Assembly: GCA_011050235.1 (NCBI GenBank)
Contig: DRGC01000051.1
Location: 18,333-82,332 of the forward strand
DNA from: Phycisphaerae bacterium
Lineage (GTDB): Bacteria > Planctomycetota > Phycisphaerae > SM23-33
Length of the DNA: 64,000 nt
Reading direction: 5' to 3'
Shown here: positions 2,583 to 41,941 of the stretch, one piece after another
How the letters are laid out: every line of letters starts with the position of its first letter
How positions within the stretch are numbered: the first letter of the stretch is position 1
Made by a program: the position numbers and the translations under genes
The notes under the pieces: model-generated
What the model was told of the DNA's origin: nothing
Databases searched by the model: none
The model's input: the letters and a program-made list of their open reading frames with translations, nothing else

Positions 2583-2769
2583 GTTCGCTCCCTTTCCCGA
2601 CAAGGCCGTTTCGATATCGCAGATATTGCCATGATCGGCACGAAAAAGAAAGTCCGAGCCGAACATTCCCCCAGCCGAATCCGCCACCTACCCCAACGCG
2701 AGGCCGCCAACGGCATTAGGCGCGACCGTCACCCCCACCAAGTCGGCGACGGCTAGAGACAGCCGCATC

Positions 2770-3035
2770 TTCTTTCGAGCCCCAAAGGGGCGTCAGAAAA
2801 TAGCCGGGGGCGCGAGCCCCCGGATAACGGCCTTAACCGCGCAGAGCCCCGAGGGGGCGACAGAAGATGGATGCTGAAAACGTCTGTCGCCCCTTCGGGG
2901 CTTTACCTTCTCCAGAATCTGCTACCGGGGCCTGACGGCCCCGGCTACTGACTGCCGGCCCTGCGGGCCTTCACCGACGAACCAACGCCGCTTCTGGGTG
3001 CAGAAAGAAGCGGCGGAGCCGTGAGAATCAACTGC
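2770..3035. repeat. Multi-hairpin structured intergenic element, copy A (homologous to 27590..27790)
   Basis: Consecutive stem-loops: tagccgggggcgcgagcccccgga; gagccccgagggggcgacag...ctgtcgccccttcggggct; ccggggcctgacggccccgg; ccggccctgcgggcc. The same modules in the same order recur at 27590..27790 with covarying stems. Confidence 0.7.
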
Positions 3036-3037
3036 TC

Positions 3038-3571
3038 CTACTGGACCGGCGGGATGAGGCCGTTGTCTTTGGAAAAGCTGGCCCGGACGTTCGGGCGGCT
3101 TAGGACCTTGAGCGTGACGACCCCCAGCACGGTCCCCAACGGGAAGAACGCGCAGCTAGCTATCGCCACGAGGTAGCACACCCAGTAGCCGCGCCGCCGC
3201 TTGAGCAGCCAGCCCGAAACGGCCAGGAAAATCAGCCAGACAAGCGTCGCCATCGCGACGAGGGCCGCGAGGATCATGCCCAGGAAGGCGCCCAGGACCA
3301 TGCTGCCGAGGAAAGCGGCCCAGGCGCCCTCCCCATATTGAGGGCCCGACGGGTCCCCCACCACCAGCGCCAGAAAAGCAAGCGCCACTATGGGAAACCA
3401 CAGAACCACCGCGATTGTATCCCCGAAGCCGCTGATCTTGAGACAGACGCCCGCAGCCACTATGGCCAGCAATATCCCAATCGCCAGGCCGTAGTGCCAG
3501 CGTGACAGCAGGTGCAGATGTCGGTTGTCTCGATTCACCGTCCGGTTGCCCCGTCTACAGGCGGCTGTCAT
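3038..3571 (-). CDS. Hypothetical multi-pass membrane protein
   Basis: 177-aa ORF with several hydrophobic helices (LAIGILLAIVAAGV, IVALAFLALVVG, VLGAFLGMILAALVAMATLVWLIFLAVSGWLL). No recognisable catalytic motif. Confidence 0.5.
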   Translation of the reverse strand: MTAACRRGNRTVNRDNRHLHLLSRWHYGLAIGILLAIVAAGVCLKISGFGDTIAVVLWFPIVALAFLALVVGDPSGPQYGEGAWAAFLGSMVLGAFLGMILAALVAMATLVWLIFLAVSGWLLKRRRGYWVCYLVAIASCAFFPLGTVLGVVTLKVLSRPNVRASFSKDNGLIPPVQ

Positions 3572-12671: not shown

Positions 12672-13491
12672 GTGATACCTCACGTTGTGAAGTATCGTCT
12701 GATCGCCAGGCGGATGCCCGACGCGCAACGCTTCAACGTTGGCCGCAGCGGGAGCACACGATACCTCATGTCATTAGGTATCGCCCCTTGTGGCGTTCGG
12801 GCCTGTCGGTCGGGCTTGCGCCCGCCGCCGCGCGGAATACCTCACGTCATGAGGTATCACCCAAGCGCCGGGCCGACCCTACGCATGGCGCCTCCGCGAT
12901 CGCAGCAGGAGCACACGATACCTCATGTCATGAGGTATCACCCAACCGCCGGACCGGCCCTACGCCTGGCGCCTCCGCGATCGCAGCAGAAGCACACGAT
13001 ACCTCATGACATGAGGTATCGCTCCCTGCGGCGTTCGGGCCTTTCGGTCGGGCTTGTGCCCGCCGCCGCGCGGAATACCTCACGTCATGAGGTATCACCC
13101 AAGCGCCGGGCCGACCCTACGCATGGCGCCTCCGCAATCGCAGCAGGAGCGCACGATACCTCATGTCATGAGGTATTACCCAAGCGCCGAACCGGCCCTG
13201 CGCATGGCGCCTCCGCAATCGCAGCAGGGGCACACGATACCTCATGTCATGAGGTATCGCCCCCTGCGGCGTTCGGGCCTTTCGGTCGGGCTTGTGCCCG
13301 CCGCCGCGCGGAATACCTCACGTCGTGAGGTATTCGCTGACGTCCGGTCGCGATCAACCTCAATACAACGAGACTGCGCCACTTGAAATGATTGGCGGCT
13401 TGGCCGAGGATACCTCACGTGATGAGGTATCGCGTGGCGGGCCCGAACCAAGCTGCCGCCGAGGCAGACGAGACCTCATGTGGTGAGGTAT
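12672..13491. repeat. Tandem array of 11 copies of a 23-bp near-perfect palindrome (consensus GATACCTCAYGTCATGAGGTATC) with 238-bp higher-order periodicity
   Basis: Copies begin at about 12673, 12760, 12836, 12917, 12998, 13074, 13155, 13236, 13312, 13409 and 13470. Spacings follow a 76/81/81 pattern repeated three times (238-bp units). The spacers themselves recur: two ~58-bp types (acccaagcgccgggccgaccctacgcatggcgcctccgc...) and one ~53-bp type (gcccc(t)tgcggcgttcgggcctttcggtcgggcttgtgcccgccgccgcgcgg). Terminal copies are degenerate. Confidence 0.9.
13409..13491 (+). promoter_or_regulatory. Putative operator/promoter region of the padR-family gene (two palindrome copies at -119 and -58 relative to the ATG at 13528)
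   Basis: Palindromes gatacctcacgtgatgaggtatc (13409..13431) and agacctcatgtggtgaggtatg (13470..13491) lie directly upstream of the PadR ORF. PadR-family repressors typically bind inverted repeats in their own promoter. Confidence 0.4.
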
Positions 13492-16089: not shown

Positions 16090-16172
16090 CCGCCAGCCGG
16101 CACAGTCAGAGCTCCGCCGCGTTTGTCTACGGCTGGTTGGGCTACGGTCCCTACACCCTCAACTTCATGCCC

Positions 16173-16250
16173 GGGGTGCCACGCTTTTCGTAAGAAAAGC
16201 GTGGCTGGCTCGCGGCGCTGCACGCTTCTGCAAGCAGAAGCGTGGCACCC
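16173..16250. repeat. REP-like double-hairpin element (family GGGTGCCACGCTT...AAGCGTGGCACCC), copy 1
   Basis: gggtgccacgcttttcgtaagaaaagcgtggc...cacgcttctgcaagcagaagcgtggcaccc. Two inner hairpins are enclosed by an outer 13-bp inverted repeat. Sits between convergent genes. Confidence 0.7.
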
Positions 16251-16263
16251 AAGACCGAGTGTT

Positions 16264-26340: not shown

Positions 26341-26357
26341 GCGCACACCTCCAACTC

Positions 26358-26436
26358 GGGTGCCACGCTTCTGCTCGCAGAAGCGTGCTGAGTATGAGAA
26401 CGCGAGCACGCTTTCACAAGTGAAAGCGTGGCACCC
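26358..26436. repeat. REP-like double-hairpin element, copy 2
   Basis: gggtgccacgcttctgctcgcagaagcgtgctgagtatgagaacgcgagcacgctttcacaagtgaaagcgtggcaccc. Confidence 0.7.
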
Positions 26437-26453
26437 AGGCACAGCTTTGCCAC

Positions 26454-27569
26454 TTAGTACGTTCCGAACTCCTGGACCGTCTCGACCATGGCCTTGAGAT
26501 TATCCAGCTTGGTGTTGGCGGGCACTTCGTCGGCCGTCGCCAGAACGTATCCCCCGCCGGGCATGCCTTCGTCCAGGCAGCGGCGGGCCTCGCGACGCGC
26601 GTCGTCCGCCGAACCGAACGCCAGGACGAGGCAATCGAAGTTGCCCATCAGGCACATGGTGCCGCCGTAGAGCTTCTTGGCCTCGGCCAGCGTGATGTTG
26701 CCTTCGTTGGGCTCGAAGGTCTCCACGAAGTGCACGCCGGCGTCGGCGAACATGGGCAGGTACTCGCGGATCGGCCCGAGCGTGTACAGGCCCGCGTACT
26801 TGCCCGGCGCCTGGCGGACCTTATCCATCATCAGAACGATGTCGGGCAGGACCCATTTTTCGAGCCACGCCGGCGACAGTTGCGAGCCGGTCGCCCAGCA
26901 CACGTCCAGCCACGCCACTTCGGTCTGGGAGGCGCAGAAAGCGTCGACGTGCCGGGCGACTCGCACGCGCTCCAGGTCGAACAGCTCGCCCATCAGGTCG
27001 GGCTCGTCGAACAGGTCCAGCATGAGCCCCTGCATGCTGCGATTGTTGCCCAGGATCGCGTAGCCGCACACCATGCCCACGCCGGCCATCCCGTCATCGC
27101 CCATGAAGGCCAGTGCTTCGTTGAGCATCGAGTAGTCCGGCTCGCCGGCCCCGGCGATGTGCTTTTCGAGCAGGTCCATGTAGGCCAGCCAGTCATCGCG
27201 GTCCTTGATGGGGTAGTCGACCATCTTGCCCACCAACGGGTCGTCAGGGATCATGCCCCAGACGTTCTTGCCCGTCATGGTGCGGCCTGGTGTGCGAATG
27301 ACGAGGTCGCTTTCGAAACCGCCGCCCGCTCGCGGGCGATCCTCACCGCTCTCGTAGGCGTAGCCGTCCGGCAAGGTCACGGGAATGTCGATCCCGAGCG
27401 GCCCGCGGTGGTAGCACGAGCCAATCATCTGATGGACCTCGAAGATCGCCTTCCAATCGCTACGGCCGAGCGTCTTATGTGCGAACCGCCCGTGAATCAG
27501 CGGCGCCACAGGCACCACATCCGGCTGCTCCCCACGAACGGCCGCCAGGAACGCTTCCTTCTTGGTCAC
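26454..27569 (-). CDS. URO-D-like family protein (second copy)
   Basis: GTG start at 27567-27569 with AAGGA about 7 nt upstream. The ORF-track N-terminal 50 aa translate the structured repeat and were removed. Confidence 0.7.
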   Translation of the reverse strand: MTKKEAFLAAVRGEQPDVVPVAPLIHGRFAHKTLGRSDWKAIFEVHQMIGSCYHRGPLGIDIPVTLPDGYAYESGEDRPRAGGGFESDLVIRTPGRTMTGKNVWGMIPDDPLVGKMVDYPIKDRDDWLAYMDLLEKHIAGAGEPDYSMLNEALAFMGDDGMAGVGMVCGYAILGNNRSMQGLMLDLFDEPDLMGELFDLERVRVARHVDAFCASQTEVAWLDVCWATGSQLSPAWLEKWVLPDIVLMMDKVRQAPGKYAGLYTLGPIREYLPMFADAGVHFVETFEPNEGNITLAEAKKLYGGTMCLMGNFDCLVLAFGSADDARREARRCLDEGMPGGGYVLATADEVPANTKLDNLKAMVETVQEFGTY

Positions 27570-27589
27570 GGCACGTCCTTTCGATGCTC

Positions 27590-27790
27590 GGGCCCCGAAG
27601 GGGTCCAAGTCAGTAGCCGGGGGCGTCAGCCCCCGGACCAAGTGGCCCGGCTCGATGAGCCCCGACGGGGCGACAGTAGGGCCAGTCTGCTGCGTCACTG
27701 TCGCCCCTTCGGGGCTCACCTCTATTGTGCATCCTCCTCCGGCGGCTTACGCCGCCGGCTACTCACTATCGGCCCTTCGGGCCTACACCG
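27590..27790. repeat. Multi-hairpin structured intergenic element, copy B (homologous to 2770..3035)
   Basis: tagccgggggcgtcagcccccgga; gagccccgacggggcgacag...ctgtcgccccttcggggct; ccggcggcttacgccgccgg; cggcccttcgggcc. Same order as copy A. Stem sequences differ but pairing is preserved (ccggggcc/ggccccgg versus ccggcggc/gccgccgg). Confidence 0.7.
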
Positions 27791-30197
27791 GCTGGACCTC
27801 GTAGCTGCCGCCGGAGGCGGTGTCGAAGCAAATCACGCCGTCTTCCACATCGGCCGGGACGGGTTTGCCGTCGGCGTCGATGACCTTGGCGTCGCCGTCG
27901 AACGGATTGACCAATCGGCATCGCTTGCCGACTTCGGATTCGATGGCGACCGGGCCGGTCTTGCCGCCGGTTTGGGCGGCGCTGACCAGGAACGCACCCT
28001 CGGCGCGGAAGGTCTTGAACGCACAGTTCAGCTTCTTCGGCCAGGCCGGGAACACGCGGATGCTGCCGTCCCAGCTCTGGAGCATCATCTCGATCAGGGG
28101 CATGATCATGCCCGTGCCCTCGACGTACAGGCCGCAGTAGCCCATGTCGTCGGAGCCCATCCCGCGGCACGTGCCATTGCGCTGCAACTCGCGGCGGAGG
28201 GTCTCGCGGATGCCGTCGATGGCCTTGTCCGGCTCGATCTGCCCGCCGCGAATGCACGACGTCCACGGCCGCGGCGTCCCGCCCGTGCCGCCGGCCCAGT
28301 TGCCGCTCCGCTCGCCGGTGGTCATCAGCTTCAACGTGTGTTCCGACGTCCCCTCCCCGTTGGGCCGGTTGAACTCAGGGAAGTTCAGGTCCAGCCAGGC
28401 CCGCTCGGCGTCGCTAAAGCCGGACAAATCCACCCCCGCCGGCTCGGCGAGGTTGGCGACGATCTCGGTCCACTGGGCCCGCAGGTCTTCATCCACACCC
28501 AGAATCTCAGCCGCCTTGGTCGCGTACTGCAGGCAGTAGCGCGTGTGCCGGATGACCTGTGGCTTGTCGAGGTAGGTCTCGATCTTGCCGGTGAAGTGGC
28601 TCTCGCCCTGGGGTGAGGGGAACGCGTGGTAGAGGCCGTCATCCCATTTCTGCAGCGTGTCGGTGTAGAACAGCGCCGCGTCGCGGATGACGGGATACGC
28701 CTCGTCGGCCAGCCACTGCTCGTCCTGCGTGTAGAGGTACCGCCACCACCAGTAGCTGGCGACCCAGCCGGTCATGTAGCTCATCCGGCAGATGCCGCCC
28801 GTGCCGTAAGGATCCTCGAAGTACGGGAACGGATAGCCCAGCAGGTGGATGAACGTGCCGCGAGCGTTCCAGTATTTCTTCGCGAACAGGCGGCCGGCTT
28901 CGACCATGTGCTTCATGCCGACGAAGAACGAGTCGGCCATCCCCACGTGGTTGCTGGCCAAGTTGCCCCAGAACGGCTGCTGGTAGTTGTAGTTCGTGTG
29001 GTAGTCGCCGTGCCACAGCGAGTAGTCCTGCACGGTCGAGGGGAACGCCAGCCCCGGGGCCACCACATCCGCCCGATACGCGCAGCGGCGGGCGTGGAGG
29101 ATGCCGTACCACATTTTTTCAATGAGCGGGTCGTCGATCTCGACAGCCGAGCGACTCCAGAAATCCGTCGCGTCGGCGTGGGTATCCTGCCGCCACTGGG
29201 CCAGCATGCCGGGCAGGTCGTCGGCCAACATGCCCGTGATGCGGTTGAGCTCCGCCTTCAGGCCACCGTCGTCGCTGCTGGCGGGCACGGCGATCGCCAA
29301 CCAACCTTCGGGCACGTCTTCGTCTTTCTTGCGCAGATGGATCACGCCGTCGCCCTTGCTGAACGGGCCTTGCGGCTCGATGTTCAGCCCCGTTACGTAG
29401 GGCACGAGGGCGTAGCAGTAGCCGTTGGGGAACTCGATATCCGGGTGGAACAGTTGCTCGATGGCCATGCGGCCTTCGACTTCGAGCACAGCCGGCGGCG
29501 GCAGGGGCGTGACCTTGGGCGATTTGATCGCCCCTTCCCACATCCAGTAGCCGGTCTTGATCTCGTATTCGCAGGCGAAGTCCTCGACGTCCGGGTCCGC
29601 CCAGCGACGCAGCACGAAGCGAATGGGCGGCTGCGAGCGGGAGCGTGTCTCGTTGGTGAGATTCTCCACCTGCCAGCGGACCACCAGCGCGTTGGTATGC
29701 GGCGGGATAAAGCACGTGAAGCGATACGTCAGGCCGCTCTCCCACGTCAGCTCGATGACGGCTTCGCCCTTCTCGATGAGGACCTTCTGCGAGATCTTCT
29801 CGTCAAGCTGATCGATCGGCAGCCGGACCATCAACTCGCCGACGGGCTTGGGGCACGGGTATGGCCGATTGCCATAGCCCGGCGCGCCGCGGACCAACTC
29901 GTGCATCCGTTTCTCGTCAGCCGGCTCGCCCTTGGTCGCTCGGGCCTTGGCGCGATCGTCGGCGGTGTAACGCTCGGACACCCAGCCTTCATCCCGAATG
30001 CCGCGGATGAGTTCCTCGATGTGAGCGGGCTCGGCGTCGTCGGACGTATCCAGCCGCCGATCCCACACATCGTTCTTCCCAAACCGCCAGATGATGGTGT
30101 TGGCCCGCTGGTAGATGCTGACCGACAGGTCGCCGTTACCCAGCAACAGCCCTTCCTCCGGCTCGAACACCATGTGATCAATTTCAATCGTGTGCAT
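27783..30197 (-). CDS. Putative large glycoside hydrolase (alpha/alpha-toroid type; family uncertain)
   Basis: 804 aa. Domain organisation and aromatic-rich core (YWWWRYLYTQDEQWLADEAYPVIRDAALFY) resemble six-hairpin glycosidases. No family-defining motif could be confirmed without a search. Confidence 0.5.
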   Translation of the reverse strand: MHTIEIDHMVFEPEEGLLLGNGDLSVSIYQRANTIIWRFGKNDVWDRRLDTSDDAEPAHIEELIRGIRDEGWVSERYTADDRAKARATKGEPADEKRMHELVRGAPGYGNRPYPCPKPVGELMVRLPIDQLDEKISQKVLIEKGEAVIELTWESGLTYRFTCFIPPHTNALVVRWQVENLTNETRSRSQPPIRFVLRRWADPDVEDFACEYEIKTGYWMWEGAIKSPKVTPLPPPAVLEVEGRMAIEQLFHPDIEFPNGYCYALVPYVTGLNIEPQGPFSKGDGVIHLRKKDEDVPEGWLAIAVPASSDDGGLKAELNRITGMLADDLPGMLAQWRQDTHADATDFWSRSAVEIDDPLIEKMWYGILHARRCAYRADVVAPGLAFPSTVQDYSLWHGDYHTNYNYQQPFWGNLASNHVGMADSFFVGMKHMVEAGRLFAKKYWNARGTFIHLLGYPFPYFEDPYGTGGICRMSYMTGWVASYWWWRYLYTQDEQWLADEAYPVIRDAALFYTDTLQKWDDGLYHAFPSPQGESHFTGKIETYLDKPQVIRHTRYCLQYATKAAEILGVDEDLRAQWTEIVANLAEPAGVDLSGFSDAERAWLDLNFPEFNRPNGEGTSEHTLKLMTTGERSGNWAGGTGGTPRPWTSCIRGGQIEPDKAIDGIRETLRRELQRNGTCRGMGSDDMGYCGLYVEGTGMIMPLIEMMLQSWDGSIRVFPAWPKKLNCAFKTFRAEGAFLVSAAQTGGKTGPVAIESEVGKRCRLVNPFDGDAKVIDADGKPVPADVEDGVICFDTASGGSYEVQPV

Positions 30198-30606
30198 CGG
30201 GCGCCTTTCTGTTCCGGCGACAACTCGCTTACCAGCCTGAAGGGCTGGAATTCGTCAGCCCAGGGCGACGCCCTGGGGAAGCGGCAATCCTACAAACCCC
30301 GACCAAGCCCTGAAAGGGCGAAATGGAGCCCGTCACGGCCAATCCGCTCGTCGAGGGAAGTATAAGGCGGCCCCGCAGGCATACAAGGGCCTTGCCAGCG
30401 GCGCGGCCTGGCGAGAAATGTCCATATTCTGACATAGTTCGCCGAATACGCCCGCCGCCGGTTGCGTCGGTGATATGGAAGGCGGGCGAGTATTCTCCCC
30501 CGCAAAATGCGGCCGCATCTTGCGGCCGCCTCTTGTGGTCGCCCCAGGCTGCCGGTACATTCTTCGGAGCAACTCAACCGGTAGTCGCGGGAAAGGAGCA
30601 TGAACC

Positions 30607-37684: not shown

Positions 37685-37769
37685 GGGTGCCACGCTTTTG
37701 CGTTGTCTGCAAAAGCGTGCAGGGCCCCGAATTGAAATACACGCTTCTGCAAGCAGAAGCGTGGCACCC
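37685..37769. repeat. REP-like double-hairpin element, copy 3
   Basis: gggtgccacgcttttgcgttgtctgcaaaagcgtgcagggccccgaattgaaatacacgcttctgcaagcagaagcgtggcaccc. Lies between convergent genes. Confidence 0.7.
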
Positions 37770-37798
37770 GCCAGGGCTACGCGATATCGGAATCTGCC

Positions 37799-41850: not shown

Positions 41851-41941
41851 CGGAGAGGGCGGGATTCGAACCCGCGGATCGAGGAATACCCCGATCAACG
41901 GTTTAGCAAACCGTCGCATTCAGCCACTCTGCCACCTCTCC
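41851..41941 (-). tRNA. tRNA-Ser (anticodon GCU), class II with long variable arm; CCA not encoded
   Basis: Reverse complement reads GGAGAGGTGGCAGAGTGGCTGAATGCGACGGTTTGCTAAACCGTTGATCGGGGTATTCCTCGATCCGCGGGTTCGAATCCCGCCCTCTCCG. There is a 7-bp acceptor stem, anticodon stem ACGGT/ACCGT with loop TTGCTAA, and T-loop GGTTCGAATCC. Confidence 0.85.

Follow-up and report, generated by a model that had tools for sequence, protein, structure and literature searches.

Two intergenic hairpin composites in a Phycisphaerae genome very probably derive from an IS200-family, REPtron-like element

Two intergenic hairpin composites in the genome of a Phycisphaerae bacterium are very probably non-autonomous, REPIN/MITE-like elements, each a transposase-less derivative of an IS200-family, REPtron-like element, and analogy with IS200/IS605 and REP-RAYT systems indicates that they are probably mobilized in trans. 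Both lie in the 64,000-nt stretch of contig DRGC01000051.1 that was analyzed as a whole (the window; G+C content 64%). The contig belongs to a metagenome bin from marine sediment. The evidence comprises the architecture of the copies, the recurrence of this architecture across phyla, an association between hairpin unit and transposase gene that holds in both directions of search, the lack of target-site duplications, selection acting on the local hairpins, and presence/absence variation among relatives. The initial annotation had preferred a structured mobile or repetitive element to a gene-specific riboswitch. This preference agrees with the present data, which reveal a multi-phylum repeat family whose ends are those of a transposase-carrying element.

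Each copy contains six hairpins in mirror-image order

Alignment of positions 27560-27810 with positions 2750-3000 by MAFFT gave 80% mean column identity over ~250 columns, and self-BLAST restricted the similarity to 27588-27790 versus 2775-2976, outside which the flanks are unrelated. Both copies are real, and the similarity is confined to the element. The true limits are 27591-27784 for copy A (194 bp) and 2778-2970 for copy B (193 bp), neither composite being assigned a strand. The second copy had initially been placed at 2770-3035; this range does contain it but extends too far, and a 10-bp perfect hairpin within it (CGCCGCTTCT...AGAAGCGGCG; 2986-3015), located just downstream of a gene encoding a 177-aa protein, is outside the repeat.

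Four or more stem-loops in a shared order had been proposed for the repeat; the order is indeed common to both copies, and the actual count is six per copy, namely a small, a large and an inner hairpin followed by their mirror image. Each copy is composed of an Acido-Lenti-1 unit (-), an inner hairpin, a loop of ~19 nt, an inverted inner hairpin, and an Acido-Lenti-1 unit (+). The outer units are terminal inverted repeats of 44-46 nt, which are ~100 nt apart and 74-80% complementary. Between them lies a central palindrome of 20-22 bp, each arm of which (GAGCCCCGANGGGGCGACAG) contains a mini hairpin. The palindrome arms match the 3′ half of R1, a covariance model of the unit described below (model positions 23-45 for the inner-left arm of copy A).

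The outer-left 46-nt unit of copy A (27591-27636, minus strand) consists of a 5-bp hairpin, a linker, a GTAG tag, and an 8-bp hairpin (CCGGGGGC/GCCCCCGG). It scores 27.2 bits with the Rfam model, below the gathering score of 37, and 53.4 bits with R1 (E-value 2e-11); its small hairpin is weakened by a T-to-C change relative to L207. The inner-left module TGAGCCCCGACGGGGCGACAGT (27656-27677, plus strand) forms the left palindrome arm with the mini hairpin GCCCC-GAC-GGGGC. It is followed by the 19-nt central loop (27678-27696, no strand), whose position is that of the transposase ORF in full-length relatives, by the inner-right module ACTGTCGCCCCTTCGGGGCTCA (27697-27718, plus strand), and by the outer-right 46-nt unit (27739-27784, plus strand; 50.7 bits with Rfam RF01687, above the gathering score, and 62.6 bits with R1). 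Copy B is built from an outer-left 46-nt unit (2778-2823, minus strand; RF01687 52.9 bits, R1 63.7 bits), the inner-left module AGCCCCGAGGGGGCGACAGA (2845-2864, plus strand), an 18-nt central loop (AGATGGATGCTGAAAACG; 2865-2882, no strand), the inner-right module TCTGTCGCCCCTTCGGGGCT (2883-2902, plus strand), and an outer-right 46-nt unit (2925-2970, plus strand; RF01687 48.6 bits, R1 60.0 bits). With R1, the four terminal units reach E-values between about 2e-11 and 4e-14.

Identity between the two copies is a mosaic, with 76-95% in the hairpin modules and 21-36%, which is chance level, in the two ~20-nt spacers and the loop. Because spacers and loops are at chance identity, A and B are not recent copies of each other. 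Compensatory change between them is exemplified by CCGGGGCC/GGCCCCGG versus CCGGCGGC/GCCGCCGG, one of the stem-preserving differences cited in the initial annotation, which are real. Folding z-scores of the copies are -6.4 to -8.5. The minimum-energy fold is one long hairpin for copy A and mixed for copy B, and both folds are thermodynamically available.

Beyond the two composites, a solo diverged unit (30233-30277, minus strand; Rfam 36.3 bits, just below 37; R1 34.7 bits, E-value 2e-6) lies just upstream of the start of the GH95-like gene (30197), and one weak unit is present in the 6 kb beyond the left end of the window. A simple structural scan of the window yielded ~3 chance matches per 64 kb and was too noisy, and the covariance model was used instead.

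A further repeat family in the window, ~85 nt long and unrelated to the first, has nested hairpins (GGGTGCCACGCTT..AAGCGTG....GCACGCTTCTGCAAGCAGAAGCGTGGCACCC). Its three copies (16171-16253, plus strand; ~37690-37775, plus strand; 26355-26439, minus strand) share a 30-nt core that is 97-100% identical and have no Rfam match; one of them is located between the URO-D stop and the start of a DUF362 gene. The region 12674-13333 shows internal tandem repetition with periods of roughly 81 and 243 nt (77-93% identity), probably reflecting a repeat domain within a gene. At 41851-41941 (minus strand; Rfam 60.6 bits) lies a tRNA gene whose variable arm is long, and a plastid psbI-rps4 match opposite this tRNA is an artefact of the same sequence.

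The terminal units belong to a motif that recurs in several phyla

The Acido-Lenti-1 unit (RF01687) is 46 nt long and contains an 8-bp hairpin with a 4-nt loop, a 12-nt linker starting with CUA, and a 5-bp hairpin with a 3-nt loop. Weinberg et al. (2010) listed it as a probable RNA with no known role and noted its occasional proximity to group II introns. Three of the four terminal units in the window pass the gathering score, and a permissive Rfam scan returned nothing other than Acido-Lenti-1 at both copies. Directly after the 8-bp stem, the CTA (TAG when read on the opposite strand) shows at least 90% conservation. The fourth base of this tag varies: three window units have GTAG and the remaining one has ATAG. 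In the opposite-strand reading the large hairpin follows the (G)TAG, as it does in REP sequences. The seed alignment of Weinberg et al. (2010), which holds 89 sequences, contains tandem arrays with periods of 74, 110, and 200 nt as well as inverted pairs ~107 nt apart. No link from Acido-Lenti-1 to a transposase was found in the searched papers that name the motif.

A genome scan with a pattern derived from the four window units identified at least 119 blocks of 8 kb carrying the unit, which come from Planctomycetota, Verrucomicrobiota, Acidobacteriota, and a few other groups. The covariance model R1 was built from 100 of the scan matches and 42 seed sequences (142 units). The initial annotation had put forward a covariance-model search for more copies, and such copies do exist in several phyla. 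Among the matches listed, adjacent full units form 50 (-,+), 7 (+,-), and 16 tandem pairs; in 40 of the 50 (-,+) pairs the inner gap is 82-119 nt, with a mode of 98-102 nt. R1 also places two inner half-units as in the window, for example in L084, L052, L071, L054, and L037. The recurrence of this layout in about 40 of the loci listed indicates that the architecture seen in the window is a defined and widespread module.

One Chthoniobacter metagenome-assembled genome (MAG) holds three elements, at L061 5299-5486, L123 5166-5353, and L026 5430-5621. L123 has its left flank in common with L061, and the reverse complement of its right flank corresponds to the left flank of L026. This pattern points to recombination or inversion between element copies or, alternatively, to chimeric assembly at the repeat.

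The unit flanks a Y1 transposase gene of the IS200/IS605 family

A second size class of (-,+) pairs was observed among the matches listed, in which the gap is 540-653 nt and an ORF of 146-150 aa lies between the same inner hairpins. The ORF matches Pfam Y1_Tnp (PF01797) with 80-98 bits and the NCBIfam model of the IS200/IS605 transposase (NF033573) with 70-77 bits (cut-off 55), and its best PDB match is ISDra2 TnpA. The invariant columns are D54 H55 H57, W95 Q96, and Y115 Q119 H122 H123, corresponding to the motifs DHxH, WQ, and Y---Q--HH, with YIxxQxxHH around the tyrosine. These motifs, together with the length of 146-150 aa and a conserved C-terminal tail, match TnpA-Y1 subclass 1.2 (Table 1 in PMC6006769). 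This subclass is defined by DH[IV]H, WQ, and Y---Q--HH and a length of ~148 aa, is mostly cyanobacterial and from Bacteroidetes, is listed as 'REP: no', and is represented by on average 1.7 very divergent genes per genome (Quentin et al., 2018; PMC6006769).

Other Y1 transposases fit less well. A true RAYT is rejected by the score of 23.7 bits with NCBIfam REP_Tyr_transpos (NF047646), below the cut-off of 80, and by the wrong Y motif (Y---Q--HH, not Y---NP). The TIRYT proteins of the acidobacterial 'TIRtron' (Di Nocera, 2013) are Y---NP proteins and hence different, and the class 3 TnpA-Y1 of Planctomycetes and Acidobacteria (Quentin et al., 2018; PMC6006769) has the motifs NHVH, W[TA], and YV..EQ, which do not fit.

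Among the 119 motif-selected blocks listed, 12 carry the gene; in 11 of them the distance from the gene to a unit is at most a few hundred bases, and in L106 no unit is nearby. At L057 5375-5812, the transposase gene has an in-frame stop and a frameshift and is thus a decaying copy, with the hairpin ends intact. The association was also examined in reverse, starting from 80 metagenome loci that were chosen by protein alone. At 49 of these a (-) unit was found upstream and a (+) unit downstream, at 23 a unit was found on one side, often at contig ends, and at 8 there was none. Altogether, a unit in the expected orientation and at a fixed distance accompanies the gene at 72 of the 80 loci, typically ~55-60 nt upstream of the ATG and ~50 nt downstream of the gene. 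Tandem arrays of units are located beside some of the transposase genes (L149, L159). Since 72 of the 80 protein-selected genes adjoin a unit, the unit can be taken as the terminal module of a transposase-carrying element.

The ~100-nt ends of both window copies can be aligned, column for column, with those of the gene-bearing loci L083, L057, and L119 and of other gene-less composites. The order in the aligned ends is the outer unit, a variable spacer of ~22 nt, the inner hairpin, and then either a ribosome-binding site with the ATG or the short loop. The gene-to-unit distances (~57 and ~50 nt) sum roughly to the ~100-nt gap of the gene-less form, which supports the view that the window copies are gene-less derivatives. 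No transposase gene was detected by tblastn in the 64-kb window, nor in the 6 kb beyond its left end, and a trans-acting source in this genome is therefore an assumption.

Selection maintains the local hairpins

The initial annotation had taken the compensatory changes between the two copies as a sign of selection on secondary structure, and covariation is strong both in the 142 units and in 33 whole composites. In the R1 alignment 97.5% of the cells are paired and 12 of 13 pairs are changed on both sides, a level reached in 0 of 500 shuffles. Across the 33 composites in the alignment, pairing in the six local hairpins reaches 97.8%; both sides have changed in 22 of the 36 pairs, and the covariation score is 0.282. 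The long-range pairing of left with right arms gives 90.5% paired cells, nine both-side-changed pairs, and a score of 0.137 in the same composites, and its pair and type counts fall within shuffles. Left and right units within an element differ at 110 stem pairs, of which 55 are compensated locally. The long REPIN-type hairpin is thus rejected as the selected structure for the outer units, where local covariation wins, and the inner palindrome is ambiguous in this respect.

G·U (G·T) pairs make up 0.6% of the stem cells, compared with 1.5% for A·C. With G·T rarer than A·C, no sign of RNA-type wobble tolerance is seen on the strand modelled by Rfam. Target-site duplications are absent from 36 of 45 elements, and the remainder equals the shuffled expectation. 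A DDE-type MITE, for which the inverted ends might speak, is rejected on the absence of target-site duplication. There is no conserved flank; a faint T/C bias is present at -3 to -1, with a mirrored A/G bias at +1 to +3. No conserved target tetra- or pentanucleotide was found by the left end, where the T/C bias is weak.

Genomic setting and variation among relatives

Both copies are located between co-directional minus-strand genes, in accordance with the intergenic placement beside minus-strand zinc-ribbon and URO-D-like genes that had been described for them. Copy B lies between the gene of the 177-aa membrane protein (stop at 3038) and the zinc-ribbon gene (start at 2582). Copy A occupies a 213-nt gap that extends from the stop of a GH95-like gene (27783) to the start of the URO-D-like gene (27569), the gene limits being JGI calls. 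On the URO-D side it ends 21 nt from the start codon, and its other end abuts the stop codon. The TAG stop codon of the GH95-like gene (27783-27785, minus strand) includes the last two bases of copy A, so that the stop codon marks the exact junction of the insertion or replacement.

Copy A is present at the same site in a relative with a 96%-identical URO-D protein. In relatives at 91%, 88%, and 83% identity, the GH95/URO-D synteny is kept but the spacer is different, and no units were found in it. The spacer of these relatives is a CGAAAT-rich palindromic sequence of 160-186 nt; beyond it, homology to the window begins again at the stop codon and, at the opposite end, ~20 nt ahead of the start codon. 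None of the 83-91% relatives offers a clean empty site; they have ~160 nt of unlike sequence there instead. Presence in the 96% relative and absence from the 83-91% relatives indicate that copy A was gained, or replaced other sequence, in the lineage of the window. The CGAAAT-rich sequence is conserved among the relatives (L204 3107-3292; L205 3405-3574; L208 1033-1192) and may be another hairpin repeat at the same intergenic site.

Copy A also interrupts assemblies. Two Logan contigs end within it and a third assembly begins within it, the three assemblies being independent; contig breaks of this kind are typical repeat behavior. With contigs of three assemblies interrupted in this way, the element is a practical cause of fragmentation for MAGs of the phyla that carry it.

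A model for the origin of the gene-less form

The full-length element, of ~640 bp and belonging to the IS200/IS605 family, carries a Y1 (HUH) gene of ~150 aa; both sides of the gene are bordered by an inner hairpin and then an outer 46-nt unit, in inverted orientation. In the window copies a loop of ~19 nt takes the place of the gene, and all six hairpins are retained. By comparison with IS200/IS605 and REP-RAYT systems (IS608 and ISDra2; E. coli TnpA-REP), the hairpins may serve as single-stranded-DNA recognition structures for the Y1 transposase, and the unpaired conserved (G)TAG at the foot of the 8-bp hairpin may play the tag or guide role of the REP GTAG. Copying or moving would take place in trans, by a transposase encoded elsewhere in the genome, and the compensatory changes would arise if only lineages that keep the hairpins remain mobilizable; both steps are modelled on the same systems. 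Since the ends are inverted, unlike those of canonical IS200/IS605 elements, the exact cleavage chemistry is not readable from IS608 or ISDra2.

Whether the 195-bp form itself moves bears on this model. A full-length element could instead have been inserted at each site and its gene deleted later, so that the 195-bp form would be a relic that never moves. Such a history would fit the unrelated spacers and loops of A and B, the loops that differ even between composites of the same genome, and the average of 1.7 very divergent subclass 1.2 genes per genome (Quentin et al., 2018; PMC6006769). It would need strongly constrained deletions to produce a gap mode of 98-102 nt across the 40 composites listed, which come from many genomes. 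Gene-less loci also outnumber gene-bearing ones by about 40 to 6-12 among the motif-selected loci listed, and one independent same-genome pair has 81% of its interior in common. Composite interiors are more similar within a genome than between genomes (0.72 versus 0.61), a modest excess. The narrow lengths, the gene-less excess, and the within-genome similarity favor movement of the 195-bp form as a unit, and we regard deletion in place as improbable.

The units might alternatively be structured RNA genes or parts of them, as the Rfam type 'Gene; sRNA' implies, acting as an mRNA stabilizer, a processing site, or a trans-acting small RNA. The Rfam scores of three of the four units and the strong covariation are compatible with this idea; both copies are likely transcribed because they lie inside probable minus-strand transcription units, and two hairpins of copy B are followed by T-rich tails. 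Several observations run against it. The units occur as inverted pairs, so that any transcript has one sense and one antisense unit, and they keep fixed distances on either side of a transposase gene. G·U pairs hardly occur, less often even than A·C, which leaves no strand signature of RNA pairing. The orthologous spacer of the 83-91% relatives is without the element, which is thus not a conserved regulator of this operon. Copy A contains no intrinsic-terminator or promoter-like sites; copy B has a few terminator-like sites on both strands that are not conserved between the copies. An RNA function of the units is accordingly judged unlikely, and the small RNA that the initial annotation had kept as an alternative finds no support in the inverted pairs, the G·U count, or the relatives.

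Two narrower explanations were rejected on similar grounds. A gene-specific cis-regulator or riboswitch is at odds with the permissive Rfam scan, which gave Acido-Lenti-1 alone, and with the spacers of the 83-91% relatives; an intrinsic terminator or promoter is at odds with the lack of consistent sites in either copy.

A segmental duplication or a chance likeness of GC-rich hairpins, for which solely the high G+C of the window speaks, can be dismissed with near certainty, as the similarity stops exactly at the element ends and the same architecture recurs in dozens of unrelated genomes, and E-values reach 1e-13. The findings that the initial annotation had named as speaking against its reading were all looked for: further copies exist, covariation is strong, and segmental duplication is ruled out by the similarity ending at the element borders. 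The copies are best explained as transposase-less derivatives of an IS200-family, REPtron-like element.

Discussion

These results suggest that the Acido-Lenti-1 'sRNA' of Rfam is in reality a DNA-level transposon end, and the sRNA label is doubtful. A broader statement would be that Acido-Lenti-1 is not a small RNA but the REP-like end module of an unrecognised REPtron-like system around an IS200-like TnpA-Y1 of subclass 1.2, widespread in Planctomycetota, Verrucomicrobiota, and Acidobacteriota; taken jointly, these propositions have in our estimate about an even chance of being correct. The analysis also yields REP-like partners for TnpA-Y1 subclass 1.2 and a probable re-reading of RF01687. 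Acido-Lenti-1 matches in genomes of the PVC group and of acidobacteria would accordingly be read as markers of repeats or mobile elements, not as RNA genes. GC-rich hairpins, if transcribed within minus-strand gene pairs, may secondarily affect mRNA stability or processing, which would be a side effect and not their raison d'être; six such hairpins in co-directional pairs may also alter coupling, a point of relevance for studies of these glycoside-hydrolase loci.

According to a proposal by Bertels and Rainey, a gene-less, REPIN-like replicator arises when the palindromes on either side of an IS200-like ancestor fuse. If the present interpretation is true, the 195-bp form, which keeps the hairpins of the gene's former 5′-UTR and 3′ side, would be a preserved intermediate of this step. 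The combination of an IS200-type enzyme and IS-like geometry with REPtron-like ends, arrays, and doublets makes the proposed transition from IS200 to REPIN testable in lineages distant from the Proteobacteria, in which it was defined.

The element resembles the REP/BIME/REPIN-RAYT systems in many respects. Its units are short extragenic palindromes with a conserved (G)TAG at the hairpin foot, they are found as single units, in tandem arrays, and mainly as inverted doublets with a fixed spacing, and they flank a Y1 HUH transposase gene in inverted orientation with no target-site duplication. Gene-less doublets far outnumber the gene among the loci listed here. The differences from REP-RAYT are equally clear. 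The protein is not a RAYT; it passes the IS200/IS605 model and has Y---Q--HH instead of Y---NP. The unit is a two-hairpin module of 46 nt and is accompanied by an extra inner pair of hairpins, and the gene-to-unit distances are fixed, as in an insertion sequence. Unlike in REPINs, covariation backs local hairpins and not the long hairpin.

The likeness to IS200/IS605 elements and to their derivatives, the PATEs or IS200-type MITEs, resides in the ~150-aa Y1 HUH enzyme, the length of ~640 bp, the subterminal hairpins, and the lack of target-site duplication; as in PATEs and IS200-type MITEs, the window copies retain the ends without a gene or ORF. Two features set the element apart from canonical IS200/IS605 elements, and a third may do so. 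Its ends are inverted repeats in all (-,+) pairs, whereas canonical elements have asymmetric ends with both hairpins used on one strand, and the tandem arrays of end units (L149, L159) are more REPtron- than IS-like. By the left end, a weak T/C bias was seen in place of a conserved target tetra- or pentanucleotide.

The terminal units are members of Acido-Lenti-1 RNA (RF01687) by score and structure, with one of the four below the gathering score. They differ from the family as named in that they are here the terminal module of a transposase-associated DNA element and occur in phyla beyond the two in the name. For TnpA-Y1 subclass 1.2, the published 'REP: no' stands in contrast to the 72 of 80 metagenome members that adjoin a hairpin unit here. 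The element is an ordinary kind of selfish repeat, one that combines REP/REPIN-RAYT-like behavior with that of gene-less IS200 derivatives and fails one defining feature of each.
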